A DNA stretch of 34,517 nt from Nitrolancea sp. Lineage in GTDB: Bacteria; Chloroflexota; Chloroflexia; Thermomicrobiales; Thermomicrobiaceae. The stretch lies in contig DATLSP010000161.1 in assembly GCA_035534015.1 (NCBI GenBank), forward strand, positions 1 through 34,517. The letters are read 5' to 3'. A model generated the notes under the pieces. That model was given only the letters and a program-made list of their open reading frames with translations. It did not search any database and was not told where the DNA came from. Both the position numbers and the translations under genes were made by a program. This document shows positions 1 through 24,808 of the stretch, one piece after another; the first letter of the stretch is position 1, and every line of letters begins with the position of its first letter.

Positions 1-977
1 ATCTCGCAATCGGTTTATTGCTCCTCTGGGCGATGATGGTATTCGTCAAGCGCCTCGACTGGTTGCGACGTTACAAGTACTCCTGGGGGTTCTTTGGTCT
101 TGGGTTGATGGCCGTCACCATGGTCTTCGGAGAGAACGTGAACGGGGCTCGGCTCTGGCTTAACCTCGGTGTGGCTACCGTGCAGCCGAGTGAACTCGTC
201 AAGGTACTGCTCGTTGTTTTCCTGGCCGCGTACCTCGATGATTATGGCGACCTCATCGCCGGTTCTTACCGCGTCGGCCCCTTTCGTCTGCCGCCAATTC
301 CATATCTGCTGCCGATGGTCTTCATGTGGGCGGCGGCGCTTGCCATCGTGGTTTTGCAGAACGACCTCGGCACGGCATTACTGTTCTTTGGGATCTTCCT
401 CGTGATGCTCTACGTCGCGACCGGGCGACTGCTGTATGTCGGCATCGGACTCAGTTCCTTCGCGGTCGGAGTTTACGTCGCGTATCAATTGTTTGCCCGG
501 ATCGCGGTCCGTGTGCAGAACTGGATCAATCCGTGGGCTGATCCGTTGAACAAAGGTTTTCAACAGATTCAGGCCGAATACAGCATGGCAGCGGGCCATA
601 TATTTGGGACTGGGCTCGGTTATGGTCACCCGCAATATATCCCCGCCGTCGAGACCGACTACATCTTTGCCGCGCTGGCCGAGGAGTTAGGGTTGCTGGG
701 AACGATTGCCATCATCGCGCTCTACGTAGTGCTGGTGGCCCGCGGTTCGCTGATCGCATTGCGGGCGGAACGCGGCTTCCCCCAGTTACTGGCAGTCGGA
801 CTGACCACAATTCTCGCACTGCAAACATTGATAATCCTCGCCGGGACGCTGCGAGTTCTTCCGTTGACCGGCATCACCTTGCCGTTCATCAGCGCCGGTG
901 GAAGCTCGCTCCTCACCAACTTCCTCATCGTCGGACTGTTACTCCGTATCAGTGAAAATAGGTCGATTAAGACATGA
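1..977 (+). CDS. SEDS-family peptidoglycan polymerase (FtsW/RodA/SpoVE), 5' end outside window
   Basis: The frame is open from the window edge (first full codon at nt 3); the tracked ORF merely begins at an internal TTG at 18. It is a polytopic membrane protein with SEDS hallmarks 'VQPSELVKVLLVVFLAAYL', 'GTGLGYGHPQYIPAVETDYIFAALAEELGLLG' and 'LPLTGITLPFISAGGSSLL'. Stop TGA 975-977 overlaps the next ATG (ATGA). Confidence 0.9.
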   Translation, partial: LAIGLLLLWAMMVFVKRLDWLRRYKYSWGFFGLGLMAVTMVFGENVNGARLWLNLGVATVQPSELVKVLLVVFLAAYLDDYGDLIAGSYRVGPFRLPPIPYLLPMVFMWAAALAIVVLQNDLGTALLFFGIFLVMLYVATGRLLYVGIGLSSFAVGVYVAYQLFARIAVRVQNWINPWADPLNKGFQQIQAEYSMAAGHIFGTGLGYGHPQYIPAVETDYIFAALAEELGLLGTIAIIALYVVLVARGSLIALRAERGFPQLLAVGLTTILALQTLIILAGTLRVLPLTGITLPFISAGGSSLLTNFLIVGLLLRISENRSIKT

Positions 978-2641
978 GTCGATTTATGCGCGCTTCAGCC
1001 TTCATCGCCGCGACCATGATTGTCACGTACGGCATGCTGACGACGCGTGATCAAGCGTCGGCAGTCTGGTTGATCATCCTGCTGATCGCAGCGGCGTTGC
1101 TCACCCTCGCACTCTGGCCGCATCTACCGAAGGATGTCCCCTCCGTTCAGCGTACGATTACGCGTGGCACCGTGCTTTTTATGGTCGGGTTCCTGGTCCT
1201 TGGCGTCCAATTAGCACGAATCCAGGTCGTCGACAGTGCATCGATCAGCGGAGCATCGGCGTCTGCCGCGGGAAGCGTGGTGGTGCAAGATCCCCGCCTA
1301 CGGCTCCAGGCGGCTGAGATCGGGCGCGGCAGCATTTTGACGATTGACGGCAAAGTAGTGGCCCAGACGACCAAGAATCCGGACGGCAGTTATACGCGCA
1401 CTTACCCTGATCCCGCGACTGGATATCTGGCGGGCTATTATTCGCCGCTCTTGTACGGCAGTAGCAACCTCGAGGCGGTTTACGATAGCGAGTTAATGGG
1501 CCGCACTGGTGGTAACCCGATTACTCAGTGGCTCGACGGAATCTTGCATCGTGATCGCCATGGATACAATCTGACACTGTCGGTGAACGACGAATTGCAG
1601 AAGCAAGCCAATCAATTGCTGGGAAATCAACGTGGTGCCGTCGTGATGATGAATGCCAAAACGGGTGCAATTGTGGCGATGGCGAGCACGCCAAATTTTG
1701 ACCCTAACAAGCTGTACGTAAACGACGGACCCCAGGTGAATCAAGAGTCAGCGACGGCGAAAGAGTATTGGGCGCAACTCAACGCGATGACCGACTCGCC
1801 GCTGCTGCTCCGTCCCACACAGGGTCTCTATATTCCCGGATCGATCTTCAAGACTGTGACTGCCTCAGCTGCGATCGAGTCGGGCGTGGCAGCCCCGGAT
1901 ACGGTCTACCGTGATGAGGGAGCGCTGACCGTCCAGTCGAGGGTCATTCCGGAGCAGAACCGCCCCGACCCGAACCGGATCAGCTACTCGTTGACCGATG
2001 CGTTTGGGTGGTCGCTCAACGTCGTCTTCGCTCAGGTCGGTTTACAGCTTGGACCGGGTCGTCTTGCGGACTATGCACAGCGCTTTGGCTTCGGTTCGGA
2101 GATCCCCTTTGACTTGCCGGTCGCGATCAGTCAACTTGACACCGATCCGAGTTTCCTATCTAGCCAGGCGGCGCTCGCGGTAACTGCCTTCGGACAGGGA
2201 CAGTTGCAGACCACCCCGCTGCAGATGGCCCTGGTCGCCGACGCGATAGCCAACGGCGGCAAAATGATGGAGCCATATATGGTGCAAGAGGTCACCGATC
2301 AAAACGGTAAGACGCTCTCGACGCATTCCCCGTCTGTATGGAAGACTCCGATCAATACCGACACCGCTTCCAAAATGCAGACGATGATGATCAATTCAGT
2401 TCAGCACGGCTACGCCTCAACCGCGCAGATTCCAGGCTACGTCGTCGGCGGCAAGACTGGAACGGCCGAAGTCGGAGGCAACAAACAACCGAACTCATGG
2501 TTTATCGGCTTTGCCGGCAAGACGGCTCCGGAGTACGTCGTAGCGGTTGTCGTGGAGAACGGTGGCGAAGGTGGAGCGGTCGCGCTGCCGATCGGCCGTC
2601 AGTTGCTCCAGACAGCGGTCAAACTTCCTCCGACGAAGTGA
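974..2641 (+). CDS. class B penicillin-binding protein (PBP2/FtsI-type transpeptidase)
   Basis: 555-aa ORF with an N-terminal TM anchor. Transpeptidase motifs are present: SxxK ('GSIFKTV'), SxN ('WSLNVV') and KTG ('GGKTGTAEV'). The ATGA overlap with the upstream SEDS gene gives the canonical SEDS-bPBP pair. Confidence 0.9.
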   Translation: MSRFMRASAFIAATMIVTYGMLTTRDQASAVWLIILLIAAALLTLALWPHLPKDVPSVQRTITRGTVLFMVGFLVLGVQLARIQVVDSASISGASASAAGSVVVQDPRLRLQAAEIGRGSILTIDGKVVAQTTKNPDGSYTRTYPDPATGYLAGYYSPLLYGSSNLEAVYDSELMGRTGGNPITQWLDGILHRDRHGYNLTLSVNDELQKQANQLLGNQRGAVVMMNAKTGAIVAMASTPNFDPNKLYVNDGPQVNQESATAKEYWAQLNAMTDSPLLLRPTQGLYIPGSIFKTVTASAAIESGVAAPDTVYRDEGALTVQSRVIPEQNRPDPNRISYSLTDAFGWSLNVVFAQVGLQLGPGRLADYAQRFGFGSEIPFDLPVAISQLDTDPSFLSSQAALAVTAFGQGQLQTTPLQMALVADAIANGGKMMEPYMVQEVTDQNGKTLSTHSPSVWKTPINTDTASKMQTMMINSVQHGYASTAQIPGYVVGGKTGTAEVGGNKQPNSWFIGFAGKTAPEYVVAVVVENGGEGGAVALPIGRQLLQTAVKLPPTK

Positions 2642-9195: not shown

Positions 9196-9756
9196 TTACG
9201 CTTCCGCAGATTCATCCTCGGGTTGATCGGCATCATGGGCCGGCTTGCTCGGGCTCATCGTCATAACCATCGTGCGGCCCTCAATATGTGGTGCCTGTTC
9301 GATGATACCGACTTCGCTAAGCTGAACTGCAAGCCGATCGAGCAGGTTCTTGCCGATGTCCTGGTGCGCGATTTCTCGCCCACGGAACAGGACACTCAGC
9401 TTAACCTTGTCACCATCCTCAAGGAAGCGACCAGCCTGCCGGCCCTTCGTATCGAGGTCGTGACCGTCGATTTTCGGACGGAGGCGAATCTCTTTCAATT
9501 CCACCGTCTTCTGGCGCTTGCGCGATTCGCGCTCCCGACGGCTCTCCTCATAACGGAACTTGCCGTAATCCATCAAGCGACAAACTGGAGGCACGGCGGT
9601 CGGTTGAACCTCGACGAGGTCAAGCCCCCGTTCACGAGCCATCTCCATGGCGTCACGCGTACGTACAATACCTACGTGATTGCCTTCTTCGTCAATGAGT
9701 CGAACTTCGGGGATCCGAATCCGTTCGTTGACACGTGCAGGTCTTGATGTGCTGAT
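9196..9756 (-). CDS. infC: translation initiation factor IF-3 (non-AUG start)
   Basis: The tracked ORF starts at ATG 9648, but the frame continues upstream and encodes the conserved IF-3 N-domain 'VNERIRIPEVRLIDEEGNHVGIVRTRDAMEMA'. There is no ATG/GTG/TTG in frame between the stop at 9823-9825 and 9648. An ATC at 9756-9754 sits 5 nt after GGGAGG (9767-9762). Confidence 0.85.
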   Translation of the reverse strand: MSTSRPARVNERIRIPEVRLIDEEGNHVGIVRTRDAMEMARERGLDLVEVQPTAVPPVCRLMDYGKFRYEESRRERESRKRQKTVELKEIRLRPKIDGHDLDTKGRQAGRFLEDGDKVKLSVLFRGREIAHQDIGKNLLDRLAVQLSEVGIIEQAPHIEGRTMVMTMSPSKPAHDADQPEDESAEA

Positions 9757-9781
9757 GGAAGCCTCCCGTGGAATATACAGA

Positions 9782-9909: not shown

Positions 9910-12198
9910 TTACGGATGTCGGTAGATTTTCACGTTGCCAGACTGAAATGCGAGCGGCCAGCCAATTTGGCCCAGCTCCTGCAGTCCGACGGCTGAGTAA
10001 GGAGCGCCACCGTCACATTGCGAACCATAGCCATTCTGCTCGATGGAGCCATCGATAATATACGTGATGTCGTACGACTTCAACAAGTTTTGTGCCTCAG
10101 GTGAAGTTGGGTTGTTATAGATCGTCGCGACGTCTGCTTTTCGTTGAGCGATTTCGCTCGATATGGACGGGTCACCAAGGCGCCACTGGTACTCGTGAAA
10201 CTGCCATCCGAGCGGCGTTGGCAGCCCGGTGGCCATTGAGAAGAGATTGTCCGGCATCACCCCATCCTCGCCGTAGGAGCATCCCGGAGATTCCAGAATA
10301 TGATCGGTCGACGCGGCGCGTGCGTTCAGCCAGTCGATTGCCGCAATCTCGTCAGGCGCGCCTTGACGAAGATAGGTAAGTCCGTCGATTCCGGAGAAGT
10401 GTGAGAATCCGTTCGTCCACCGGTAGGCTGAGATCGGCGGATAAAGCGCGGCTCCAAGGGTAATGAACAATATTGGTGCGACAGATGCGACCGCGATCAG
10501 TCGACTTGAATGATTGCGAATCCACACGATTCCAAGTGGGAGCCCTACCGCGCAACTAATCGCGAACAGAGCCCAGGACTGAAAATAGAGCTTGAAAACG
10601 GTGTTCATACGATTAGCAAACGCATCTTCGAGAAAAACCAGCTCGGTGATCGATAGGAGCAAGAACGCCACCCCAAAGAGGCTGACGAGATAGCGCGTCG
10701 CCGGGCAAACCTTTCCCACGACGATCACTGCGAAGATGACCGCGAGCGGCCCCATAAACCAGAAGAGGCCGGGGAATCGGGTAAAGACCGATGCGAGAAA
10801 CAACCCTGCCGCTACCGCAGCGACCGATCTCGGTTTGGTCCCACCCGCTCTGATGACTGGAAGCGCGATTGGTACGAGGAAGAGCAGGGCGATCAGGAGG
10901 AAGAGACCGTGGACGGTGAATATTTCCCGGGTCGAACTCCTGGGCCAGGTTACGATCCCAATCGTCTCGACTAGTTTGCCCAGGATCGGGAGCGTTTTGA
11001 TTGACTCAGGAATATCGTTTCCTTGAAGGCCAACTGCCGGAGTGTAGTTAAGTTCGAATGGGAGTACGGTCACGATCGCTGACGCAAAGAGAACGCCGAG
11101 CGGAAGCAATTTTTGCGACCAGCGCAGACCGATCGTCGCGATGAGGATGCCGACGACCGCGAAGAGCAGCGCAGGCGGCATATCCCACGAGTTTGTCGCA
11201 TAGAGTGCAGCGGCCAGGACACCCGCTATGGCTGCGCCAGAGAGCAGCGACCTCGTATTGTGTCCAGCCAAGACAATTGCCAACCCGACTGCAATGCTGG
11301 AGATAAACATAGGGTACGCGAGAACATGCGGGTGCAGGTCTCCAAGCACGAAGCTGAACGCGGGAAACTCGTTGATCGTCTGCGCTCCAGGTCCGTCGAC
11401 GATCACGCGCGATGCGTTCCAGCCGACACCTTCCCACCAGCCGGCGTGCAGCGTGCGCCATGGATGTTCGATGAACTTAAGCGGCGTATACAGATTGCCG
11501 ATGCCGACCAGGAAGATACCGGCGAGCACGCCAGTAAGCGTGAGCATTTTCCGCGAACGGTTACCCAGACTTCGCATCAGGTTGACCGCCGTACCGGCCG
11601 CGCCAACGGTCGCCGTGGCAAAGAGGGTGGCGAGCGCGAGGTTGAAGGCGTGGCTCGGCAAGATGTGGGCGATACGTGCCGGAAGCGACATCAAGAGGTA
11701 ACCGAGATAGTAGTAGTTTATCGTGTGACCGAGGAACCAGGGATCAGCCGGAGGCAGCGAGCGGGTGTGTTCGATGCTGGTGAGAAAGGTCAGTTCCATC
11801 GGTTTTTCGGTGTGCTGGATGGCGGGGTTGAACGACCGGAACACGACATATCCCACGAAAAGCGCGAAGGTCACGAATTCGTACACGATTAGTTGAACGA
11901 TGTTCTCGCGTAAATAACGCGCGAGTTCACCGCCGCGCAATTCGTAAATCCAGGCTATGAGTCCGATTACCGCCGGAATTGTGATGATCAGCAGAGTCGT
12001 GTAGGGGATTGCTCCCACCGCACTTAGCCACCAGGGTACGAGCGCCGCAAGCAGCAGTCCGAGCGGTCGGACGATAGCGAGGCCGCGGTCGGGTAGGGCG
12101 GAAAGCCCTCGATAGATCAGCGGATACATGAGCCAGGCGAAGGCGCTCAGGGTGACATACCAACGCACAGACTCAAACGCGACCTGAGAGATCGTCAC
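9910..12198 (-). CDS. YYY-motif polytopic membrane protein (DUF2298 / Chlor_Arch_YYY-like), single-module form
   Basis: 762 aa and very hydrophobic. Motifs: 'HTEKPMELTF', 'ADPWFLGHTINYYYLGYLL' (YYY codons 11707-11715), 'INEFPAFSFVLGDLHPH', 'NSWDMP' and 'RMNTVFKLYF', plus a soluble C-terminal domain. The GTG start overlaps the upstream stop (GTGA at 12195-12198). Confidence 0.85.
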   Translation of the reverse strand: MTISQVAFESVRWYVTLSAFAWLMYPLIYRGLSALPDRGLAIVRPLGLLLAALVPWWLSAVGAIPYTTLLIITIPAVIGLIAWIYELRGGELARYLRENIVQLIVYEFVTFALFVGYVVFRSFNPAIQHTEKPMELTFLTSIEHTRSLPPADPWFLGHTINYYYLGYLLMSLPARIAHILPSHAFNLALATLFATATVGAAGTAVNLMRSLGNRSRKMLTLTGVLAGIFLVGIGNLYTPLKFIEHPWRTLHAGWWEGVGWNASRVIVDGPGAQTINEFPAFSFVLGDLHPHVLAYPMFISSIAVGLAIVLAGHNTRSLLSGAAIAGVLAAALYATNSWDMPPALLFAVVGILIATIGLRWSQKLLPLGVLFASAIVTVLPFELNYTPAVGLQGNDIPESIKTLPILGKLVETIGIVTWPRSSTREIFTVHGLFLLIALLFLVPIALPVIRAGGTKPRSVAAVAAGLFLASVFTRFPGLFWFMGPLAVIFAVIVVGKVCPATRYLVSLFGVAFLLLSITELVFLEDAFANRMNTVFKLYFQSWALFAISCAVGLPLGIVWIRNHSSRLIAVASVAPILFITLGAALYPPISAYRWTNGFSHFSGIDGLTYLRQGAPDEIAAIDWLNARAASTDHILESPGCSYGEDGVMPDNLFSMATGLPTPLGWQFHEYQWRLGDPSISSEIAQRKADVATIYNNPTSPEAQNLLKSYDITYIIDGSIEQNGYGSQCDGGAPYSAVGLQELGQIGWPLAFQSGNVKIYRHP

Positions 12199-15100
12199 GG
12201 GTTGACCTTGGCAGAGAGTTTCGGCGCAAGTCTGGGGAACGGGATCACTTCGTACACCGTCGTGTCTCCTGACTTGAAGGCGATGCGCAGATCGGTCCCG
12301 ACCATTGCGTCAAGCGTTGCCAGACCGGCCACGCTGGCATAGGGTTGGTCGCCCGCGAAGATGCCCGCGAACCCGGGGTCGGGTTCCCATTCGCGTTCGA
12401 CGTCACCGACGATGATGAAGCGGATTCCGTATTGATCAATGAGTGCGCGCTTCGTCGCGACATCGGTTGAATTGTAGAGCGTGTGCAAATCGACGAGCCG
12501 TTGATCGATCCCGGGCCAGTAGCGCTGTTGCCGTTCGTGGCTGTCCCAGCCCAACACGGAAGGGAGTCCGGTGCCCGAGGAAATCCTGGCGCCGTTGCCC
12601 CGATACGGGCCAATGCTCGCCTCGGCGATGATGCCGTTATCGGTGTCGTGGGTCCGTAGCCACTTAATCGCGGCGAGATCGCCGGTGAAGTCGATCTTCT
12701 GGCCGGAGGAGTTGAGAATCCACGATCCATTCATCCATGCTAGACCGTTGAGCGTCAACGTGCTGGGACTGCCCGGCATATGGTTCGCGAGGCGGGCCGG
12801 GGTGCCGGCGATCGGATAGATAAGTCCGGCGGCGATGAGCAGTGTGCTCGTAAGCAGCGCCACTCGGGCTGCGACGATGCGCGGTTTCATCGAGTCGAAT
12901 TCCGGCAGCACCGGTGGACGCGTTGGCTGACCCGCGATGATCCCCAGTGGTTGACGATCCATGGTGGTGGCAACGGTGTAGATGAGCCAGACGAGCGCCA
13001 TCGATGCCGCGAGCGCGAAGAGTGTCCAACCCTCCAGGAAGAACTTGAAGACCGTGTTCATGCGTTCCCAGGGTGATCCGGAAAGATCGTCGACGACATA
13101 GACCAGATCGGTGCCGAGCGTCACGCCTGACGCACTGGCAATCATGAGACCAAACAGGGCGAGCGGCCGTCGATCGGAGAACTGGAGCCAGATGAGGACT
13201 CCAAGGACGAGCGGCACGAGCAACACGGCGGCGGTAGGCCGAATCGGCATGAGAAGCCCGATCAATGCAGCAGCGATCGGGCTCAAATAGACAAGTGATT
13301 GCAGCCGGGAGTCTTCGCCGACCACGACGAGCATCATCAACGGTAGCGCGGCTCCGACGAATCCGGCGACGAGCGCGACGATGAGGACGTGGACCGGGCT
13401 GAGGTCGCGCGTGATCACCGAACAGACGAAACTCGCCGCAACCGCGGCAGCTCCAGCCAGCATACACGCGAGCAGATCATTGCTGTGCGGATTGAAGCGA
13501 CCGATCGCGAGCACGAATCCGGCCAGCGCCAGTATGCCGAGGAAAATGCCGAACTGGACCATATATTGCTCCGGTGCGGTGCCGTTCGTGGTGCGAGCGA
13601 TACCGGACACAAGCGCGACGAAGCGACTGAAGAATGGCCAGAAAAGCGTCCAAGTCATGCCACCGATCGCCAGCCAGATCCCGGCGGCGAGGGCAAACGG
13701 CTTAACGCGATAAGGCCGCCGGGTAATGGCCGTCGTCGCGAGTGCCGCGCCGACGAGCAAGAGTCCAAGCGGCATATCCCACGAATTCGTCACCACCATC
13801 GTACCGAGCACCAGCGCGGTGAGGACTGCCCATACGGCGACGTCTTTGACACAATGTAATCCGGAACGGATGCGTTCGTAGACGAGTGCGATCAGCAAGA
13901 CGGTGATCGGTAGGTCGATCGCGTGAGGGTGCAGATCGGCCCAGATCTGGGTGAAATAGGGAAATTCGGTGATGGTGTAGGTGACGACGCTACGGCTGCG
14001 CCAGAAGTCGAAGGACTGGCCAGTGCTGCTGATGACCTGAATAAAGCCATCGAGATTGCCGATGATCGAGTGCAGGAGCACGCCGCAACCCCCGGCGATC
14101 ACGACCCATTTGAGTCGTGTTGTGCGCAACAGGTCCGACCCGATCGTCGAGCTAAGGCTGAAGACGCCGGCAATCAGCATCGCGCTGACGGTCGCCATCC
14201 CGAGTTGAAAGCCGATTTCAGGCGGTATGCCGGTGAGCTTCCAGAGATAGGCGACGAGGTAGAAGCCGTAATAGTAGTAATTCATCGCGCCACCGGCGAA
14301 CCATGGGTCGTACGGAGGGAAGACGGCACTACGGCCGATGGCATTCATAAACGCCATCTCCATCGGCTTTTCGCCACCGAAATAGGTCTGCCAGAGATCA
14401 GGATTGATCGCCCTCATCGTCAGAAAAAACGCAAAGGCGCCGAAGAAAAATGCCTCAGAGATGAGGATCATGCGCCAGCGTCCTCGAACGATCGGCCACG
14501 CCTGGCGAAAACTCCGGTGAAAGCCGAGCCAAATCGCGGCGACGACAAGCCCAATCGGTAGTAAAAGATTCGGCATGCGAAAGTGGACCAACTGCAGACT
14601 GACTGCGATCCACACCGCATAGCCGGTGACGATCAAACCGAGAGTGCGCGACAGACCCCATCCAAGATCGCTGAAGCGCGCGAAGATAGCGAACGTCAAC
14701 GGTAAGGCAGCGAGCCCGAGAAGGATCAGCACCACGATCCAGACCGCCGTCGCGACCAGGCTGTAGTGTGTGATGGCAGACGACCAGCCGAGGTCGTTGG
14801 CGACGTCGCGCTGATCGACCGGTTGACTCAAGAGTAACGATGGGGACGACGCGTTGCGGGTTGGATCCCACGGTTGGGCGATCGCCGCCGCGAAGCGCTG
14901 CCGGAGTTGATCCGTGGAGAGCGCGGCGACCTTCTTGAAGATGCGCACGTGCGGGTGGTCGTAGACCGAGAAACTCTCGTCGGCGGTGTGATCATTGAAT
15001 GTCATGCCAAACAGCGACGGCTCGACGTTGGATTCGTAGACTTCCTGGAACCCAAGCTGTCCCGATTCAAGTAAGCGGTAATACTCCGAATCGACCGGAT

Positions 15101-16646
15101 AGCGCCAGGGTGACTTCGGAATAGACAACGACAGACGGTCGCTCGACAGAATGACATAGTCGGCTTGCTGCAGCGCGTTCACAATGTAACCGAACTCCTG
15201 TTCGTTCGGTCGATCAGCGTAGAGGTCCATCGTGATCTGCTTATAGTACGGAGTGGGGTATGGGTGACCCGCCAGGGCAATGGGTAATGAATCGTCCCAA
15301 TACTCGGCGGTAAGCGTCGCTCCAGCCGGTATGTTCTGGTAGATCCAGGCCGACGCAGCGATCCGCGTGTTTGTTTTGCCGTAGATCGACTCGAAGGCGA
15401 TCGACCAGCCGAGTGTGCCCGCGACGATGAGCGTGATACCAACAATGGGCGCGACGAAGCGGAACGACCAGGCGCGTTTTTGAGGCAGCAGCTGCAATAC
15501 GAACGCTACCGTCAAAATGACGAGCGCCGGAACGATCGGCTCCATGTAGCGCATGAATTTCGCTTCCGCAGTGGCGATGAGCGCGAAATACGGGACGATC
15601 CAGCTGAGCAGCAGCAACTCGACGAACGAGCGGGAGCGCCAGCGCCAGAGCATGAAGACCACCGCGGCAAGTGCCGGTATCCCGAGGAACGGTCCGAGCC
15701 CCCAGTGGACGAGGTTTCCGAGTTCATACCGTACAGGAATGTCGCCAACAAACTGCCGCGTAAACGGAACGTCAAACTTGCCGCTTACAATGCTCCACTG
15801 CAGTCGCGTGTCGCTGATAAACGCGGCCTGCTGCAGTAGCGCATATGGATCGAAGAGCGCGAACGTGGCCAGCGTGGCGACGCCCGCCGTGGCCAGATGC
15901 TTGACAACCGGATCGAGCATTTCCGGAATACCGCGCGATTTGAACGAAAATATCATCGTCAGAATGATCGGCACGACAAGTTCAACAACGCTGATCTTCG
16001 TCGCGAGCGCCATCGCGAATACGATTCCAGCGAGTGCGCTCCAGCGGTAGCCGGGTCGTTCATGAAAGCGCAGACAGGTGAGCAGCAGGGCAACGGTGAA
16101 GAATGTCACCCAGGTATCGGCGGTGAAGAAATGCGCCAACTGCACCATCATTACCGTGGTGGCCAGTAGCGTTCCGGTCAGCAAGGCGGCTATCCGCCCG
16201 TAGGCGCGGCGCGCGAACACCATTGCCAGGGCGACGGTAGCGACATCGAGCAGTTCGGTCAGATTTCGTCCGATCTCGCCGACGTGGTCATAGTTGTTGT
16301 AATTCGTCTGTTTCAGGGTGCCGACAACCCAGGCGATAAAGTCGGTCAGATAGAGCGGCAGACTGCCGTAGGCGTACGCTTGCGGTTTGCCGTCCGGGCC
16401 GTCGGAACGTGGGTTGAGCGGGCTATGCGCGGGATCGAGCAGCGCCCCCAGGTTGTTGATGCTCGGCGCGTGTATGCGCTCGGTCAACACCATGACGATG
16501 TTGCGTTCATCCGGTTGAAGATACCAGCCGTTGTCCCAGTTATGGCCATAGAGGCGCAAAAAGAGTGCGAGTGCCAGAATCGAAATTACGCCAAGGTAAA
16601 AGAGGAAGCGGCGCGACCGGTCGGTCTTCATGATAGATGGGATCAT
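12195..16646 (-). CDS. giant YYY-motif membrane protein: N-terminal GT-C/PMT_2-like module plus DUF2298 / Chlor_Arch_YYY-like module
   Basis: The tracked ORF runs to 16811 but would overlap the divergent GTPase gene. Plausible starts are ATG 16646 ('MIPSIMKTDRSRRFLFYLGVISILALALFL') or ATG 16631. C-terminal half motifs: 'GGEKPMEMAF', 'YDPWFAGGAMNYYYYGFYL' (14268-14279), 'ITEFPYFTQIWADLHPH', 'NSWDMP' and 'RMNTVFKFF'. N-terminal half: 'LQPDERNIVMV' and 'AYAYGSLPLYL', then the soluble domain 'YWDDSLP...YDHPHVRIFKK'. Confidence 0.85.
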   Translation of the reverse strand: MIPSIMKTDRSRRFLFYLGVISILALALFLRLYGHNWDNGWYLQPDERNIVMVLTERIHAPSINNLGALLDPAHSPLNPRSDGPDGKPQAYAYGSLPLYLTDFIAWVVGTLKQTNYNNYDHVGEIGRNLTELLDVATVALAMVFARRAYGRIAALLTGTLLATTVMMVQLAHFFTADTWVTFFTVALLLTCLRFHERPGYRWSALAGIVFAMALATKISVVELVVPIILTMIFSFKSRGIPEMLDPVVKHLATAGVATLATFALFDPYALLQQAAFISDTRLQWSIVSGKFDVPFTRQFVGDIPVRYELGNLVHWGLGPFLGIPALAAVVFMLWRWRSRSFVELLLLSWIVPYFALIATAEAKFMRYMEPIVPALVILTVAFVLQLLPQKRAWSFRFVAPIVGITLIVAGTLGWSIAFESIYGKTNTRIAASAWIYQNIPAGATLTAEYWDDSLPIALAGHPYPTPYYKQITMDLYADRPNEQEFGYIVNALQQADYVILSSDRLSLSIPKSPWRYPVDSEYYRLLESGQLGFQEVYESNVEPSLFGMTFNDHTADESFSVYDHPHVRIFKKVAALSTDQLRQRFAAAIAQPWDPTRNASSPSLLLSQPVDQRDVANDLGWSSAITHYSLVATAVWIVVLILLGLAALPLTFAIFARFSDLGWGLSRTLGLIVTGYAVWIAVSLQLVHFRMPNLLLPIGLVVAAIWLGFHRSFRQAWPIVRGRWRMILISEAFFFGAFAFFLTMRAINPDLWQTYFGGEKPMEMAFMNAIGRSAVFPPYDPWFAGGAMNYYYYGFYLVAYLWKLTGIPPEIGFQLGMATVSAMLIAGVFSLSSTIGSDLLRTTRLKWVVIAGGCGVLLHSIIGNLDGFIQVISSTGQSFDFWRSRSVVTYTITEFPYFTQIWADLHPHAIDLPITVLLIALVYERIRSGLHCVKDVAVWAVLTALVLGTMVVTNSWDMPLGLLLVGAALATTAITRRPYRVKPFALAAGIWLAIGGMTWTLFWPFFSRFVALVSGIARTTNGTAPEQYMVQFGIFLGILALAGFVLAIGRFNPHSNDLLACMLAGAAAVAASFVCSVITRDLSPVHVLIVALVAGFVGAALPLMMLVVVGEDSRLQSLVYLSPIAAALIGLLMPIRPTAAVLLVPLVLGVLIWLQFSDRRPLALFGLMIASASGVTLGTDLVYVVDDLSGSPWERMNTVFKFFLEGWTLFALAASMALVWLIYTVATTMDRQPLGIIAGQPTRPPVLPEFDSMKPRIVAARVALLTSTLLIAAGLIYPIAGTPARLANHMPGSPSTLTLNGLAWMNGSWILNSSGQKIDFTGDLAAIKWLRTHDTDNGIIAEASIGPYRGNGARISSGTGLPSVLGWDSHERQQRYWPGIDQRLVDLHTLYNSTDVATKRALIDQYGIRFIIVGDVEREWEPDPGFAGIFAGDQPYASVAGLATLDAMVGTDLRIAFKSGDTTVYEVIPFPRLAPKLSAKVNP

Positions 16647-16679
16647 AGCAATGTTGTCATGGTTAGGACAATCAGCCTG

Positions 16680-16709
16680 TTGACCTTCGCAAGGTGTGGG
16701 CCATATACT
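16680..16709 (+). promoter_or_regulatory. putative sigma70-type promoter of the small-GTPase gene
   Basis: TTGACC (16680-16685), N18, TATACT (16704-16709), 65 nt upstream of ATG 16774. The leader contains the hairpin GCTGCG-CGAA-CGCAGC (16736-16751). Confidence 0.4.
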
Positions 16710-16773
16710 CCAAAGGACCAGACGTTGTCGCGAAGGCTGCGCGAACGCAGCGTCGAGAAGCGGGGCCTGCTCC

Positions 16774-17277
16774 ATGAAAACGCTCAAAGTAATCGTCGGT
16801 GGCGAGGGCAACGTCGGTAAGACGTCTCTGATTCGTCAGTATGCCAAAGGGAAGTTTAGCGAAGCCCGGAACATCACGCTGGGCATCGACATAACGACGC
16901 AGGAGTTTCAGATCGACGGGGAGGCGGTTCGTCTCGCGATCTGGGATATCGAAGGGCAGGCCGGCAATCGGCCGAACTTCTACATCGGCGCGCAGGCGGC
17001 GATGTTGGTATACGACGGAACCGAGCCGTCCTCTTTGGAGGCGTTGATCGAGTGGCACAGTCGCTGCAGCCGTTATGCGGGCGACGCCCCAATCCTGGTG
17101 ATCGGCAATAAGATCGATCTCGGTCTAGCATTCCCTCCGCTGTGGGGACGAGTGTTCGCCAAGAACATCGGGGCAAAGCACGGTTTTCTCTCCGCCAAGA
17201 CGGGTGAAAACGTCATTCAGGCGTTCAGTATTCTGGCGAACCAAGCGGTCAATCACGCTAGCGCCGCACGCCGGTAG
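16774..17277 (+). CDS. Ras-superfamily (Rab/Ras-like) small GTPase
   Basis: 167 aa from ATG 16774; the tracked ORF from 16696 overlaps the promoter region. G1 'GGEGNVGKT', switch I 'NITLGID', G3 'WDIEGQ', G4 'GNKIDL', G5 'LSAKTGENV'. Confidence 0.85.
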   Translation: MKTLKVIVGGEGNVGKTSLIRQYAKGKFSEARNITLGIDITTQEFQIDGEAVRLAIWDIEGQAGNRPNFYIGAQAAMLVYDGTEPSSLEALIEWHSRCSRYAGDAPILVIGNKIDLGLAFPPLWGRVFAKNIGAKHGFLSAKTGENVIQAFSILANQAVNHASAARR

Positions 17278-19616: not shown

Positions 19617-20513
19617 CTATTCGATGAGCCGTCCCGTAATCACGATTCGTTGATCGTATGCGCCTTTGGCTTGATCGAAGGTCCCGTTGCACGTGATCAA
19701 GGTAATCGTTGGCGTTCCGGTGGAAGCAACGATCTGACTGGCGTCGGCCGTCGCCGAATACGATTCGATGGTCGCGACACGGTATCGAAATGACGTGCCG
19801 TTACCATCGTCGACATCGATTTCGTCACCTGGCTGCAATTGGTCGAGACGCCAAAAGACTGCGGGCCCCACTCCGGCATAATCGAGATGTCCCGCGAACA
19901 CGGCGTTACCCAACGTTCCAGGCTGAGCAGAAAAGTCATACCAGGCGACAACCGACGGCGAGTCCGGTGCCTGCATCACCCCGCCATCGACCGTCTTTAC
20001 TTCCACCGGCGCGTTGACACCAATTGCCGGGATCAGCAGTCGCCTGAGCATCGCCTGAGGCTCGCTCGCGGCGGTCGGAGTATTTTGGCCCGTCGATGTA
20101 GCCACGGTACTTGACGGCGCCGGTAGTTGGGTTGGAGTTTGGGCCGAAGCCACGGTTTGTGCCGGCTGCTCGGTTGGCGCTGGTTCCCCGGTTGGAATGG
20201 GATCCCTGGTTGGTGTGGGTGCGAAGACAACGGTGGGAACCGTTACGTTTGGAGCGACAGCCTGGGGTGTCGCGAGACGTGTAGTTGGAGAGTTGTCGAT
20301 TTGCGGTTGAATGGTTTCGAGTCTGGTCGACGCGCCGGTTGGAGAGGCGATTGCCAGAGAGGACGACGTTCGACCGTTCACTGTTTTATGTGACGGGATC
20401 GTGAAATTTTGAAATGCCAGGAGACAGAGAGCGAATCCAGCGAGTATCACAAACACTACCGAGCGACGGGCCAGCATCTTACGCCTCATCCTCGGTTCGG
20501 GCGGACGAACCAT
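19617..20513 (-). CDS. sortase, class F-like
   Basis: The catalytic domain runs 'LLIPAIGVNAPV...VAWYDFSAQPGTLGNAVFAGHLDY...TLITCNGTFDQAKGAYDQRIVITGRL', giving the His / TLxTC Cys / Arg triad. It has an N-terminal TM anchor and a Pro/Thr-rich linker. The start is uncertain: in-frame ATGs occur at 20651, 20585, 20513, 20489 and 20477. ATG 20477 has GAGG 6 nt upstream; 20513 begins the basic-TM segment. Confidence 0.8.
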   Translation of the reverse strand: MVRPPEPRMRRKMLARRSVVFVILAGFALCLLAFQNFTIPSHKTVNGRTSSSLAIASPTGASTRLETIQPQIDNSPTTRLATPQAVAPNVTVPTVVFAPTPTRDPIPTGEPAPTEQPAQTVASAQTPTQLPAPSSTVATSTGQNTPTAASEPQAMLRRLLIPAIGVNAPVEVKTVDGGVMQAPDSPSVVAWYDFSAQPGTLGNAVFAGHLDYAGVGPAVFWRLDQLQPGDEIDVDDGNGTSFRYRVATIESYSATADASQIVASTGTPTITLITCNGTFDQAKGAYDQRIVITGRLIE

Positions 20514-20585
20514 AATTGTCTCGAATACTACCGTGCGACCTGCCGGTACCCTACGCGTCGTCTTCGGTTCGATTAGACGAACCAT
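20442..20585 (-). repeat. 72-bp imperfect in-frame tandem duplication at the 5' end of the sortase gene
   Basis: Copies 20585-20514 and 20513-20442 (read on the minus strand) are identical at 52/72 positions with no gaps, by my manual count. Both begin ATGGTTCGTC and carry a GGTTCG-N6-CGAACC hairpin. The stems are identical and the loops differ (TCTAAT vs TCCGCC). Confidence 0.7.
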
Positions 20586-20684
20586 TGCTGTTCTCCAGTC
20601 GGATAGAGCTGCCCCCGCTACGGGAACAGCCCAATTCCGATCTTCGTCCATGCCGGGTCCTGGTTGGACTGCCGGCTGAAGTCG

Positions 20685-21893
20685 CTAGCGGCGGTATCGC
20701 TTCATCGCGACGAATCCGACGCCGGTGAACAGCAGCGCCAAAGCGGCCATGAGCGCGAAGCGGGATTCTGACGAGGCTCGGGAATTGTCATTCGCGACCA
20801 ATCCAACCGAACCGGTGTTCGGGAAGCTGATAGTCGTCGCCTGTGCAGTCGCGCCTGGCGTTGGCGTCCCCGCAGTGTCGTTCCCCGCCACAGTCGTTCC
20901 GCCATTATTCGTCGACGGCGTTGTTGTCGTTCCCCCACTCGTCGGTGTACTCGTCGCATTACCGGTAGGAGTGGCCTCTGTGCCGCCAGGTGCAACCGGT
21001 GTTCCACTGGAGCCGCCGGTCGGAGGCGTCCCGCCCGCTACTTCCGTCGGTGTTGCGGCCGGCGTCGTTCCCGGTGTCGTGACCGGAGTTGTGGCTGGCG
21101 TCGTTCCCGGTGTCGTGACCGGAGTTGTGGCTGGTGTTGTGACCGGCGTAGTGGTCGGAGTTTCTGGTGCCGCGATGCACCCCGCAATGGTGATGTTGTT
21201 GGTATCCATCGTGACGGCGCCGGTTTGCGCGAGAGCTCGGCCAATGACGCCCGCCCCGGTATTTAGGGTGATGCTCGCAAGCGCGAGAATGTTCCCGGAG
21301 AACGCGGTCGTCGTGCCGAGCGTAGCGGAACTACCGATCTTCCAATAGACGTTGCAGGCTGAACCGCCGTTGATCACGTTAACCGAAGAGTTACTCGCGG
21401 TAGTGAGCGTCGTCTCGATCTGGAAGACGAAGACGGCGCCAGCGTCGCCCTGAGCATCGAGCGTGAGGGCTCCCGTCAACTGGGCCGACGATGAAAAGCA
21501 GTAGACGCCCGGGAGGAGCGTCATCCCACCCAAGTCTTGACCTGTTAAATCATGATCACATGCCTGTGCGCCTAGCGCGTTGTACGCCGTGGTGACGTCA
21601 TTCTGTGCTTGAAGTGCAACCGCATCGGCGCTATGTATGACTCCACCGGTAACGATCCCTGGCGGAAATCCGGAGATTGCGGTCCCTGGGTCGACACCCA
21701 AGCTTCCATAGACAGTGGACGATCCAGTGTTGGTGACGGTGGAGCCGGCCAAAACCGCAAAGTTCTGCGCTGTACCGAGGGATGACGCAGTTGCCGCCTC
21801 CCCTCCCATCGGGAAGGCATTGGCAAAAAGCACCGCACCAATCGCGACGGTTACTAATGCCATCCGGTTGGTCCATCGACTGACTTTGAACAA
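20685..21893 (-). CDS. secreted DUF3494 (ice-binding-like beta-solenoid) surface protein with Thr/Pro linker and C-terminal sorting signal
   Basis: The TTG start at 21893 lies 7 nt after GGAG; an alternative is ATG 21863. Signal peptide: 'MALVTVAIGAVLFANAFPMGGEAATA'. The DUF3494 signature is 'LGTAQNFAVLAGSTVTNTGSSTVYGSLGVDPGTAISGFPPGIVTGG'. A TTP-rich repeat linker precedes the C-terminal 'FPNTG', a TM segment and 'KRYRR'. Confidence 0.85.
   Translation of the reverse strand: MFKVSRWTNRMALVTVAIGAVLFANAFPMGGEAATASSLGTAQNFAVLAGSTVTNTGSSTVYGSLGVDPGTAISGFPPGIVTGGVIHSADAVALQAQNDVTTAYNALGAQACDHDLTGQDLGGMTLLPGVYCFSSSAQLTGALTLDAQGDAGAVFVFQIETTLTTASNSSVNVINGGSACNVYWKIGSSATLGTTTAFSGNILALASITLNTGAGVIGRALAQTGAVTMDTNNITIAGCIAAPETPTTTPVTTPATTPVTTPGTTPATTPVTTPGTTPAATPTEVAGGTPPTGGSSGTPVAPGGTEATPTGNATSTPTSGGTTTTPSTNNGGTTVAGNDTAGTPTPGATAQATTISFPNTGSVGLVANDNSRASSESRFALMAALALLFTGVGFVAMKRYRR
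20688..20825 (-). other. candidate cell-wall sorting signal (FPNTG, 17-aa spacer, hydrophobic segment, KRYRR tail)
   Basis: The last 46 codons read 'FPNTGSVGLVANDNSRASSESRFALMAALALLFTGVGFVAMKRYRR'. The FPNTG codons are at 20811-20825. Confidence 0.6.
21061..21132. repeat. perfect 2 x 36-bp tandem repeat inside the DUF3494 gene
   Basis: GGCGTCGTTCCCGGTGTCGTGACCGGAGTTGTGGCT occurs at 21061-21096 and again at 21097-21132, with degenerate flanking copies. It encodes 'ATTPVTTPGTTP' twice. Confidence 0.95.
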
Positions 21894-22404: not shown

Positions 22405-24009
22405 GTGGCGGCGACCGCATCAACTGACTTGGAGATCGAGCAACCAGCACCGGTCGCCGCCTCTAGTCGACTCTTCCACTGGCTGGTGTTGATTATTGTC
22501 TTCATCGGCGGTACATCGAGTATCGCGATCGAGATCGCTGCTTCGCGATTGCTCGGCCCCTATTTCGGTACATCCACCTTCATATGGGCGAATCTAATCG
22601 GTCTTACGCTCCTCTATCTCTCGATCGGCTATTACTACGGTGGGCGTATCGCCGATCGCTGGCCCAACGCGACGCTACTGTTGATCTTTACCTCGATCGC
22701 CGGCTTCGGTACCGGATTGATCCCGATTCTGTCGCGGCCGATCCTTGAGAAATCGCTGACCGCGTTCTCCAACTACTCGGTTGGCGCGCTTTACGGCTCG
22801 CTCGTCGGCGTCATCTTGCTCTTCGCTGTTCCCGTGACCCTTCTGGGCTTCGTTTCGCCCTATGCGATTCGCCTCAGCTTGAATCGGGTTAACGCCGCCG
22901 GCAACACCGCAGGGTCGCTCTACGCGCTTTCCACGGTCGGCAGTATCATCGGCAGTTTTCTGCCGGTGCTCGTACTGATCCCATCGTTCGGTACCTACTG
23001 GACCTTTTATATGATCGCGCTGGCGCTGCTTGTGACCTCGGCGCTGGGTCTTGTTGTCCTCCACGCACGTTGGGCCGGGCTTGGGGCGATCGTGCTGATC
23101 GCCGTCGTGCTGGCGCTGGCGTTTTTTACCGGCGGTATGTCGATCCGACCGCCGGAGTTCGGTAAGCTCATCCATGAAGAGGAATCGGAGTACAACTATA
23201 TCCAGGTGCTGAAACAGGGCAACGCGACCATTTTGGCCCTCAACGATGGTCATGCGGTGCATTCGATCTACGAGCCCGGTCGCGAGATTTACGGCGGACC
23301 CTGGGATTACTTCACGATTGGACCGTACTTCAATCAAAATGAGAAGCCGGCGGACGTAAAGAACGTGGCGCTGATTGGGTTGGCTGCCGGTACCATGGCA
23401 CAGCAGTTGACAGCGGCGTATGGACCGATCCCAATCGACGGTGTGGAAATCGACCCGAACATCGTCAAGGTTGGCCGCGAGTACTTTAATATGAACGAGC
23501 CGAACCTCAACGTGATTGTTCAGGACGGCCGATACTTCTTGCGAACGACGAACAAGCAATACAGCGTCATCGGTATCGACGCGTACCAGCAACCGTATAT
23601 TCCGTTCCATCTCACAACGAAAGAGTTCTTTCAGGAGGTCGACAACCACCTGGCGCCAGGCGGCGTCGCGATCATCAATGCAGGTCGCACGGATACCGAC
23701 TATCGGCTGGTGGATGTTATTGCCAGCACGATGAAGACGGTTTTCCCCAACGTCTACATCCTCGACGTCGATCAATATGCGAACTCGATCGTCATCGGTA
23801 CGAAGGATCCGACGAACATCGCGAATTTCGCGGCGAACATTAACCAGCTTCAGCCTGGCTTGCTCAAACAAATCGGTCAGATCAGTCTGCAGAGCGGCAA
23901 TATTCGTGAGTGGACGAGCACCGATCCGCAGTGGGTCTTTACCGACGACAAGGCGCCGGTCGAGCGGATCATCGACCAGATCATTGTCGACGCCGCACGC
24001 GGGGAGTAA
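22405..24009 (+). CDS. membrane-fused spermidine-synthase-like (aminopropyl/methyltransferase-fold) protein
   Basis: The GTG start lies 6 nt after GGGAGA. The N-terminal ~230 aa are polytopic. The C-terminal soluble domain has a Rossmann 'VALIGLAAGTMAQQL', plus 'VEIDPNIV', 'DGRYFL' and 'VIGIDAY', matching the SpeE-like layout. Confidence 0.82.
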   Translation: MAATASTDLEIEQPAPVAASSRLFHWLVLIIVFIGGTSSIAIEIAASRLLGPYFGTSTFIWANLIGLTLLYLSIGYYYGGRIADRWPNATLLLIFTSIAGFGTGLIPILSRPILEKSLTAFSNYSVGALYGSLVGVILLFAVPVTLLGFVSPYAIRLSLNRVNAAGNTAGSLYALSTVGSIIGSFLPVLVLIPSFGTYWTFYMIALALLVTSALGLVVLHARWAGLGAIVLIAVVLALAFFTGGMSIRPPEFGKLIHEEESEYNYIQVLKQGNATILALNDGHAVHSIYEPGREIYGGPWDYFTIGPYFNQNEKPADVKNVALIGLAAGTMAQQLTAAYGPIPIDGVEIDPNIVKVGREYFNMNEPNLNVIVQDGRYFLRTTNKQYSVIGIDAYQQPYIPFHLTTKEFFQEVDNHLAPGGVAIINAGRTDTDYRLVDVIASTMKTVFPNVYILDVDQYANSIVIGTKDPTNIANFAANINQLQPGLLKQIGQISLQSGNIREWTSTDPQWVFTDDKAPVERIIDQIIVDAARGE

Positions 24010-24016
24010 CGACTGC

Positions 24017-24808
24017 ATGGATGCGACCCAAGGGAGCAGAACCCCGTTCCGATTCGACAGCCTGGCAGGTTTCCCGCTGATTCATGGCGTGACGACGCGC
24101 GATCTCGAGTTGCCCGGTGAAGGCGACATGAATATCGCGGGACGGCTACCCATCACTGAAGCGTTGACCAATCGGCATACCTGGTCGAGTGCAATTGGTG
24201 TCAACGCGGATGCGCTCGTGTGTGGCCGGCAGGTACACGGCATCAACGTACGAGTGGTCGATGAGCGACACCGAGGGCTCGGCGCACGGGATATAGAAGA
24301 AGCGTTGCCGCAGACTGACGCGCTGATCACGCAGTCGTCAAATCTGCCACTTATGGTCTACACTGCCGACTGTGTCCCCGTGATCGCGTACGATCCAGTG
24401 CGGCACGCGCTCGGCCTGGCGCACGCCGGTTGGCGCGGAACCGTCGGCAATATTGCGGGGCAGCTGGTCGCAGCCATGGCTGCGGAATTCGGTTCGGACC
24501 CGGTCGATTTGATCGTCAAGTTGGGGCCGTCGATCGGGCCCTGCTGCTACGAAGTCGGCGACGAGGTGATTTCGGCATGGAGCAAGAGCGGGCTCGATCC
24601 GCATTCCGACGCCATTCGTAGTGCCGACCCACGCTCGCATCTCGATCTCTGGCGCGCGAACAGCCTGGCGCTCGAAGCATCCGGGGTGCCGTCTGCTCAC
24701 ATCGAGCATTCGGGCCTCTGCACCCGCTGCCATGCTGATCGATTCTTCTCGCGCCGGGCCGGACAGGGTCACCGCGGTCTCTTCGCGACTATCGGACAGC
24801 TAAAATAG
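24017..24808 (+). CDS. pgeF: peptidoglycan editing factor PgeF (YfiH/YlmD, DUF152 family)
   Basis: The tracked ORF from 23777 overlaps the upstream gene; the in-frame ATG is at 24017 ('MDATQGSRTPFRF'). Motifs: 'VHGINV', 'TDALIT', 'YTADCVPV', 'HAGWRGT', 'GPCCYEVG' and 'CTRCHADRFFSRR'. Confidence 0.88.
   Translation: MDATQGSRTPFRFDSLAGFPLIHGVTTRDLELPGEGDMNIAGRLPITEALTNRHTWSSAIGVNADALVCGRQVHGINVRVVDERHRGLGARDIEEALPQTDALITQSSNLPLMVYTADCVPVIAYDPVRHALGLAHAGWRGTVGNIAGQLVAAMAAEFGSDPVDLIVKLGPSIGPCCYEVGDEVISAWSKSGLDPHSDAIRSADPRSHLDLWRANSLALEASGVPSAHIEHSGLCTRCHADRFFSRRAGQGHRGLFATIGQLK

Follow-up and report, generated by a model that had tools for sequence, protein, structure and literature searches.

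What do two giant, adjacent membrane-protein genes do in a bacterium of the Chloroflexota? The question is raised by a stretch of 34,517 nucleotides (nt) from Nitrolancea sp. (assembly GCA_035534015.1, contig DATLSP010000161.1, positions 1 to 34,517; hereafter the window), in which the pair occupies 6.7 kb, or 19.5% of the total. A previous reading made from the letters alone (the sequence-only reading) had described three paralogous modules with a YYY motif and proposed an envelope glycan or protein-glycosylation machine. Family membership, paralogy, the GT-C_A fold, motif conservation, gene coupling and a recurrent partnership with PMT_2-like proteins are established. From the modelled folds and conserved residues, we consider it moderately probable that the pair is a glycosyltransferase machine of three active modules that faces outward and depends on polyprenyl-phosphate sugars. 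The family, fold and pairing in the original proposal thus stand, and the glycosyltransferase activity itself is what we infer. The features of the gene pair are as follows.

12195 to 16631, minus strand: large gene, 1478 amino acids, a PMT_2-type module with a predicted GT-C fold fused to a DUF2298 module (open reading frame, Pfam and TIGR03662).
9910 to 12198, minus strand: small gene, 762 amino acids, GTG start, a single DUF2298/YYY module with 16 predicted membrane helices.
12195 to 12198, minus strand: GTGA overlap, containing the stop codon TGA of the large gene and the start codon GTG of the small gene (read from the sequence).

The overlap, already noticed in the sequence-only reading, is seen both in the list of open reading frames (ORFs) and in the junction itself, which reads ...AAC CCG TGA in the frame of the large gene and GTG ACG ATC in that of the small gene. 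The maximal ORF of the large gene covers 12195 to 16811 on the minus strand. Its length had been given as about 1483 amino acids, which the ORF supports if translation starts at the ATG at 16646; the start itself had to be revised, since public gene calls (P0121, 1478 amino acids) and the lengths and N-termini of the homologues (1476-1481 amino acids, N-terminal consensus MxxxR) favor the ATG at 16631 (MKTDRS...), five codons downstream. The closest named relatives are proteins of Nitrolancea sp. metagenome-assembled genomes (MAGs), with 73-74% identity, which places the window in a Thermomicrobiales-type genome of the Chloroflexota. Long antisense or overlapping ORFs within both genes (e.g., 11113 to 11892, plus strand) were rejected as artefacts of GC-rich reading frames.

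We compared both proteins with the curated family profiles. The large and small proteins matched Pfam PF10060 (DUF2298) with E values of 7e-93 (312.7 bits) and 7e-95 (319.2 bits), respectively, against a threshold of 27.8, and NCBIfam TIGR03662 (Chlor_Arch_YYY) with 448.4 and 445.1 bits against a cut-off of 300.25. Both are therefore far above the curated cut-offs of the family to which they had been provisionally assigned. The small protein carries the eponymous YYYxG motif as NYYYLG and the C-terminal module of the large one (C-module) as NYYYYG, and all of the motif strings quoted in the sequence-only reading were recovered from the two translations. In a BLASTP comparison, the large and small proteins shared 26% identity over 336 amino acids (E 3e-26), with 28% (E 2e-18) for the C-terminal region. 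The alignment of the C-module family with the small-protein family by hhalign had a probability of 100% over approximately 715 columns, with E values from 5e-119 (local) to 8e-182 (global). Judged by these alignments, the paralogy that had been supposed between the two proteins is genuine and involves the C-terminal 858 amino acids of the large one. The pair thus contains the single-copy (762 amino acids) and the fusion (1478 amino acids) forms of DUF2298 side by side.

The N-terminal part of the large protein (N-module) belongs to a different family. The modules of the large protein and the conserved N-module motifs are located as follows.

14862 to 16631, minus strand: N-module, residues 1-590, a predicted GT-C_A membrane core with its own alpha/beta soluble domain (about residues 420-590).
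16506 to 16514, minus strand: P40-D41-E42, DE motif in the first outer loop of the N-module (homologue alignment).
15291 to 15302, minus strand: Y444-W445-D446-D447 in the N-module soluble domain, about 27 residues past the last transmembrane helix (homologue alignment).
14772 to 14861, minus strand: linker from the N-module soluble domain to the first C-module helix, TRNASSPSLLLSQPVDQRDVANDLGWSSAI, in which the predicted local distance difference test score (pLDDT) drops to 59-72 (residues 590-620).
12198 to 14771, minus strand: C-module, residues 621-1478, DUF2298/YYY module (TIGR03662 and hhalign).

A Pfam PMT_2 match covers residues 130-237 of the large protein with 44.0 bits, above the gathering score of 26.1; such a hit on the N-terminal module had been named as possible. 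In contrast, the N-module reached only 31.7 bits in the TIGR03663 (Agl23) profile, below the cut-off of 126.25. At the profile level, hhalign related the N-module to two PMT_2-like clusters that adjoin DUF2298 genes in other Chloroflexota (97.7-98%); one of these is TIGR03663, and the alignment with these Agl23-family neighbours had a probability of 97.7% and an E value of 2e-12. The alignment with DUF2298 was weak (13-65%), although collinear, with the first transmembrane helix (TM1) opposite helix 100-122 of the small protein, HPDE opposite TEKPME, and FAYGS opposite NYYY. A diverged DUF2298 copy as the origin of the N-module was rejected, since the module is far nearer to the PMT_2/TIGR03663 clusters. 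Hence, the claim of three paralogous modules holds for the two DUF2298 copies and is too strong for the N-terminal module, and by profile comparison the pair consists of two DUF2298 paralogues and one module of a different GT-C family. D41 is present in 99 of 100 N-module homologues and E42 in 93, and the DE motif aligns with that of the TIGR03663 family. W445 and D446 are conserved in 100 of 100 homologues and D447 in 99; further invariants are H167/D172, K212 and R361-Y362. The YWDD motif lies at what we take to be the place where STT3, AglB and PglB carry WWDYG, a likeness that could be a coincidence or a sign of peptide-acceptor binding.

The small protein was modelled by AlphaFold2 with a 69-sequence alignment, and the N-module was modelled as residues 1-620. 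The models had pLDDT values of 93.3 and 92.3 and predicted template modelling (pTM) scores of 0.94 and 0.90, respectively. In a Foldseek search against the PDB, the seven best matches of the small protein were all GT-C_A proteins with a probability of 1.00 each: AglB (7e9s, E 1e-5; 3waj), AftA (8if8, chains C and B), PglB (6gxc, 5ogl) and ArnT (5f15). Six of them had E values from 1e-5 to 9e-4, and 5ogl had 2.8e-3. AftA (8if8) gave the best TM-score, 0.45/0.55; EmbC, AftB and ALG3 followed the top seven, and the best match outside GT-C was to transporters, with a probability of at most 0.41. For the N-module, all 31 matches with E values of at most 1e-3 were GT-C_A proteins with a probability of 1.00, led by STT3 (1.7e-9). 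They included STT3, AglB, ALG12, ArnT, Pmt4, DPY19, ALG9, PglB, AftA and Pmt1/2, with Emb proteins at slightly weaker E values. The predicted structures thus assign the small protein and the N-module to the GT-C_A fold; the GT-C-like layout proposed before is the only one with significant Foldseek matches.

We then located the conserved residues of the DUF2298 modules, which are listed below with the C-module first.

14358 to 14378, minus strand: GGEKPME of the C-module (motif in translation).
14268 to 14282, minus strand: NYYYY of the C-module (motif in translation).
13923 to 13937, minus strand: DLHPH of the C-module (motif in translation).
13044 to 13064, minus strand: RMNTVFK of the C-module (motif in translation).
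11800 to 11811, minus strand: T130-E131-K132-P133, opening the first long outer loop of the small protein (E131 in 69/69 homologues).
11707 to 11718, minus strand: N161-Y162-Y163-Y164 of the small protein, the family-naming YYY motif (homologue alignments).
11326 to 11340, minus strand: D287-L-H289-P-H291, closing the second long outer loop of the small protein, candidate metal site (D, H and H each in 69/69).
10591 to 10611, minus strand: R530-M-N-T-V-F-K536 of the small protein, in the last outer loop and the start of the next helix, candidate phosphate-binding motif (R530, N532, T533 and K536 each in 69/69).

The C-module also carries YDPWF, ITEFP and NSWD. In the predicted topology of the small protein, three helices precede helix 100-122, the counterpart of TM1 of the PMT_2 module in the alignment. 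Next come a 58-residue loop bearing E131-K132, D152-x-W154 and N161-YYY, then two helices and a 62-residue loop that closes with E277-F-P and D287-L-H-P-H291. Further helices with N336-x-W-D lead to a short loop with E519, D525 and R530-x-N-T-x-F-K536, and the protein ends in a soluble alpha/beta domain (residues 595-762) with GWxxHExQWR and two invariant cysteines. These motif residues are invariant among the 69 homologues, and the invariants are mostly kept once Halarchaeum, Pseudobutyrivibrio and distant Chloroflexota members are added: E131, K132, D152, W154, YYY, E277, D287, H289, H291, N336, R530, N532, T533 and K536 are shared by the homologues from Chloroflexota to Halarchaeum and Pseudobutyrivibrio.

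According to the predicted topology, the invariant charged residues all lie in long loops that face the side of the membrane where the soluble C-terminal domain is also found, suggesting that the loops with EK, DxW, YYY, E, DxHxH and RxNTxFK are extracytoplasmic. The first helix of a DUF2298 module would then enter the membrane from outside, in keeping with its place in the fusion protein, directly after the outer soluble domain of the N-module. By the same prediction, each module has invariant or nearly invariant acids in its first long loop: E131 and D152 in the small protein, E754 and D775 in the C-module, and D41 and E42 in the N-module. An acidic motif in the very first loop, as described in the sequence-only reading, is found in the N-module (DE), but the acidic motif of the DUF2298 modules sits further on, in a first long outer loop that comes after four helices. 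The possibility that one module is an inactive copy was rejected, since all three keep their own invariant sets and none looks degenerate.

The order of these loops recalls the oligosaccharyltransferases. In AfAglB, the catalytic metal is held by loop-1 Asp47 together with Asp161 and His163 of the Asp161-His162-His163 motif (PMC8342417). By loop order, not by superposition, the DxHxH of DUF2298 would occupy the place of this Asp-His-His in the topology. One possibility is that the pair acts as an oligosaccharyltransferase of a non-STT3 type, moving a preassembled glycan as a whole from its polyprenyl-diphosphate carrier onto surface proteins. In favor of this, AglB and PglB rank high among the structural matches of the small protein, and the list for the N-module is headed by STT3 chains. 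Behind the last helix comes a conserved soluble domain, and the invariant YWDD of the N-module stands approximately 27 residues past its last helix. However, neither protein had a Pfam STT3 match at E values of at most 0.1 or a sequence or profile match in the PDB, and WWD occurs in neither; in place of WWDYG, the N-module has YWDD and the DUF2298 modules have GWxxHExQ/Y/WR. Moreover, the PMT_2 family, to which the N-module belongs by score, uses monosaccharide-phosphate lipids as donors, and AftA and ArnT match about equally to AglB. We regard en bloc transfer as decidedly unlikely.

For the favored reading, a glycosyltransferase machine that uses polyprenyl-phosphate sugars, we infer catalysis, donor, acceptor, metal use and complex formation as follows. 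The ligand of each module would be a sugar linked to polyprenyl phosphate that had been synthesized on the cytoplasmic side and then flipped outward. Within the DUF2298 modules, the phosphate would be held by the invariant Arg and Lys of RxNTxFK, and the invariant Glu/Asp of the first long loop together with DxHxH would activate the acceptor, possibly via a divalent metal, as is the case for AglB. From there, the sugar would pass to a cell-envelope acceptor that the soluble outer domains display. The best candidate for this acceptor is a surface protein, favored by the TPR and beta-propeller fusions in relatives and by the occurrence of the family in archaea and Dehalococcoidia. The alternative is a membrane-anchored glycan, which the gene context in a Firmicute and the likeness to AftA and the Emb proteins keep in play.

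We next surveyed the locus in one genome per species, which returned 80 loci, 79 from Chloroflexota and one from a MAG labelled Rubrobacter. The pairing of a one-module with a two-module protein, raised in the sequence-only reading as a point to be surveyed, proved to be conserved across Chloroflexota classes. The large and small genes were found together in 35 loci, in 33 of which both gene boundaries could be placed. The exact 4-nt overlap (ATGA or GTGA) was present in 16 of these 33, including one Dehalococcoidales MAG, and the others mostly had gaps of 2-27 nt. By analogy with EmbA-EmbB and Pmt1-Pmt2, we take the conserved overlap as a hint that both polypeptides are produced in similar amounts and work as a unit. 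In Thermomicrobiales the gene order is kept: the large gene, the small gene and infC follow one another, and fmt, preceded in some loci by a small GTPase gene, is divergent from the large gene.

A PMT_2-like partner is fused or adjacent to DUF2298 in 58 of the 80 loci, and many of the remaining loci are short contigs. In 34 Chloroflexota loci, from Dehalococcoidia, Anaerolineae and other lineages, a TIGR03663 gene lies directly downstream of a single DUF2298 gene, often with a 4-nt overlap. An FAD oxidoreductase is another frequent companion, seen in 16 loci, as is a 'flippase-like' protein of the LPG_synthase_TM type, seen in 14. In several Chloroflexota, DUF2298, TIGR03663 (Agl23-like), the FAD oxidoreductase (PRK07233) and LPG_synthase_TM genes form a compact operon (L063, 9830-15221; L043, 10001-18104; L037 and L051). 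Some Anaerolineae-type loci add a methyltransferase, a second PMT_2 protein, a large fusion protein and two unannotated proteins, as well as a TIGR03663 protein fused to NHL/beta-propeller repeats.

These partners bring in the main rival of a transferase function, namely that the modules handle lipid-linked sugars without transfer, as a flippase, scramblase or flippase-associated protein like Agl23, with DUF2298 proteins as accessory receptors. Haloarcula hispanica Agl23 has been described as a putative hexose-phosphate-dolichol flippase that serves the synthesis of N- and O-glycans; after purification it moved M5GN2-PP-lipid in liposomes, and it rescued a yeast rft1 deletion (PMC11182771), and TIGR03663 is now named 'flippase activity-associated protein Agl23' in NCBIfam. 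The profile-level relationship of the N-module to TIGR03663 (97.7%) and the 'flippase-like' gene beside DUF2298 in 14 loci are consistent with such a role. On the other hand, the N-module stays under the TIGR03663 cut-off and is equally near to another PMT_2 cluster, and the structural relatives are all enzymes. The acid, His, Arg and Lys invariants of DUF2298 lie in outer loops by the soluble domain, a pattern of a catalytic site rather than a translocation path, and the translocation reported for Agl23 could be a side activity of a protein with a GT-C fold. Because the conserved residues form this catalytic-type signature, we consider a role confined to lipid-linked sugar handling unlikely.

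The partnership also allows a broader proposal: DUF2298 proteins may be outward transferases that consume hexose-phosphate-polyprenol from Agl23-type partners, constituting a new family of surface-protein glycosyltransferases in Chloroflexota and Archaea. This is speculative, and we hold it to be rather improbable. If it is true, the role of DUF2298 could include O-glycosylation in Archaea, for which, to our knowledge, the enzyme is still to be identified, and the pair in the window would be a version with three active sites.

The DUF2298 profile matched 8,712 representative clusters at 50% identity, and the family occurs in Chloroflexota, haloarchaea and some Clostridia, matching the range of TIGR03662. 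Giant relatives of 2,000-2,700 amino acids carry three to five DUF2298 stretches (P0254, P0257, P0259, P0265, P0268, P0272, P0273, P0228, P0235 and P0238), indicating that the multiplication of modules goes well past the pair described here. TPR repeats are present in some of the multi-module relatives. A full-length member on a Halarchaeum megaplasmid scored 566 bits in TIGR03662; its neighbourhood contained no Agl23-like or glycan genes. A Pseudobutyrivibrio protein scored 432 bits, and on the Pseudobutyrivibrio xylanivorans plasmid pNP95 (L082, 1-14648) the DUF2298 gene lies inside a surface-glycan cluster, together with two GT2 genes, a DegT aminotransferase, an O-antigen-ligase family gene, a glucosyltransferase-domain gene and a nucleoside-diphosphate (NDP)-sugar epimerase/dehydratase. 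This cluster in a rumen Firmicute suggests a horizontal spread of DUF2298 together with glycan genes.

The O-antigen-ligase family gene and the NDP-sugar enzymes next to this homologue bear on another possibility, that the pair, in the manner of EmbA/B/C, AftA/B and ArnT, extends or modifies a polysaccharide or lipoglycan anchored in the membrane or bound to the wall, and does not act on proteins. The top TM-score of AftA and the matches to EmbC and AftB agree with this. The Emb proteins, too, are GT-C enzymes of large size that end in a soluble domain, and their paralogous genes lie next to each other. However, DUF2298 is also present in a haloarchaeon and in Dehalococcoidia MAGs, organisms with S-layer envelopes rather than wall polysaccharides, and the TPR and NHL/beta-propeller domains fused to relatives or partners suggest protein binding. 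A polysaccharide acceptor is thus quite unlikely.

Several observations weigh against the favored assignment of the pair as a glycosyltransferase machine. The TM-scores to solved GT-C enzymes are just 0.28-0.59 (0.28-0.55 for the small protein, with large root-mean-square deviations). Searches of PDB sequences with both proteins and with the 69-sequence profile gave no meaningful match at E values of at most 10, so the tie to GT-C enzymes is at the level of the fold. The equation of E131, D287, H289 and H291 with the AglB metal site is one of loop position alone. The characterised member of the partner family, Agl23, is reported as a flippase, not a transferase (PMC11182771). The neighbours in the window and in other Thermomicrobiales (fmt, infC and the small GTPase) are not sugar-activation genes. 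Finally, the searchable literature contained only incidental mentions of DUF2298 and no experimental function.

Taken together, the pair belongs to a catalogued, uncharacterised family that is now assignable, through the predicted structures, to the GT-C_A fold class, and its three-module, translationally coupled architecture is unusual. DUF2298 thereby gains a testable proposal, consisting of the GT-C_A fold, an outer-face signature of acid, His, Arg and Lys residues, and a systematic partnership with PMT_2/Agl23-type proteins. If the proposal is true, it would define a new glycosyltransferase family and a candidate envelope-glycosylation enzyme for Chloroflexota, whose cell surfaces are poorly understood, and the reported 'flippase' Agl23 would be set in a two-component context and open to re-examination.

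The other genes of the window (rodA, a penicillin-binding protein gene, gyrB, plsX, a SpoU methylase gene, infC, the GTPase gene, fmt, a sortase gene and others) gave no functional clue, and no Rfam or tRNA features were found in the window. The Ras/Roc-family small GTPase (16774 to 17277, plus strand; Pfam Ras, E 2e-30) is encoded divergently from the large gene, approximately 140 bp away. Its conservation, also raised in the sequence-only reading, is partial: the GTPase gene is conserved between fmt and the large gene in only approximately nine of the Thermomicrobiales loci. Its position probably reflects synteny, not a functional link. On the other side of the pair, the initiation factor 3 (IF3) frame continues upstream of the first ATG (9649 to 9774, minus strand; ..IPREASISTSRPARVNERIRIPEVRLIDEEG..), above the infC ORF (9196 to 9648), whose Pfam IF3_N match begins only at profile position 29. 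From these two features, infC probably starts at a non-canonical codon, either ATC at 9756-9754, 5 nt past GGGAGG, or ATT at 9774-9772; such a start is typical of autoregulated infC. At 19617 to 21893 (minus strand), a sortase gene lies directly downstream of a gene for a protein with an ice-binding-like domain (Pfam Ice_binding, E 1e-64), which looks like a surface protein with its anchoring enzyme. A RodA/FtsW-family gene and an overlapping class B penicillin-binding protein gene (18 to 2641, plus strand) indicate that the organism has a peptidoglycan elongation machinery. At 22405 to 24808 (plus strand), a spermine-synthase-like ORF of 534 amino acids overlaps the start of the next ORF (Cu-oxidase_4, YfiH-like) by approximately 230 nt, and one or both starts are probably mis-set in the ORF list.

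Finally, we compared the pair with known systems. Within the DUF2298/TIGR03662 family, some multi-module members carry TPR repeats, whereas the version in the window is without them. With AglB, PglB and STT3 (CAZy GT66), the modules share the predicted GT-C_A fold, an acid placed in the first long outer loop by the predicted topology, a D-x-H type motif before a helix and a soluble domain past the last helix. In contrast to the GT66 enzymes, the DUF2298 modules have three extra N-terminal helices and the signatures EK, YYY and RxNTxFK instead, and show no sequence or profile similarity to them. The N-module alone resembles the PMT_2 superfamily, including ArnT (GT83) and the protein O-mannosyltransferases (GT39), in its Pfam score, its loop-1 DE and its fold matches to ArnT and Pmt4, but differs in the large size of its alpha/beta soluble domain and in its fusion to a DUF2298 module. 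Agl23/TIGR03663 is likewise a PMT_2-like membrane protein that partners DUF2298, and the N-module is related to it at the level of profiles, where the two DE motifs fall opposite each other; unlike Agl23, the partner in the window is fused upstream of the DUF2298 module, not encoded downstream. EmbA-EmbB and Pmt1-Pmt2 are also paralogous, paired GT-C proteins, EmbA and EmbB are encoded by adjacent genes, and both systems are among the fold matches. They have no sequence relationship to the pair described here, in which a fusion protein and a single module together bring three modules into a putative complex.

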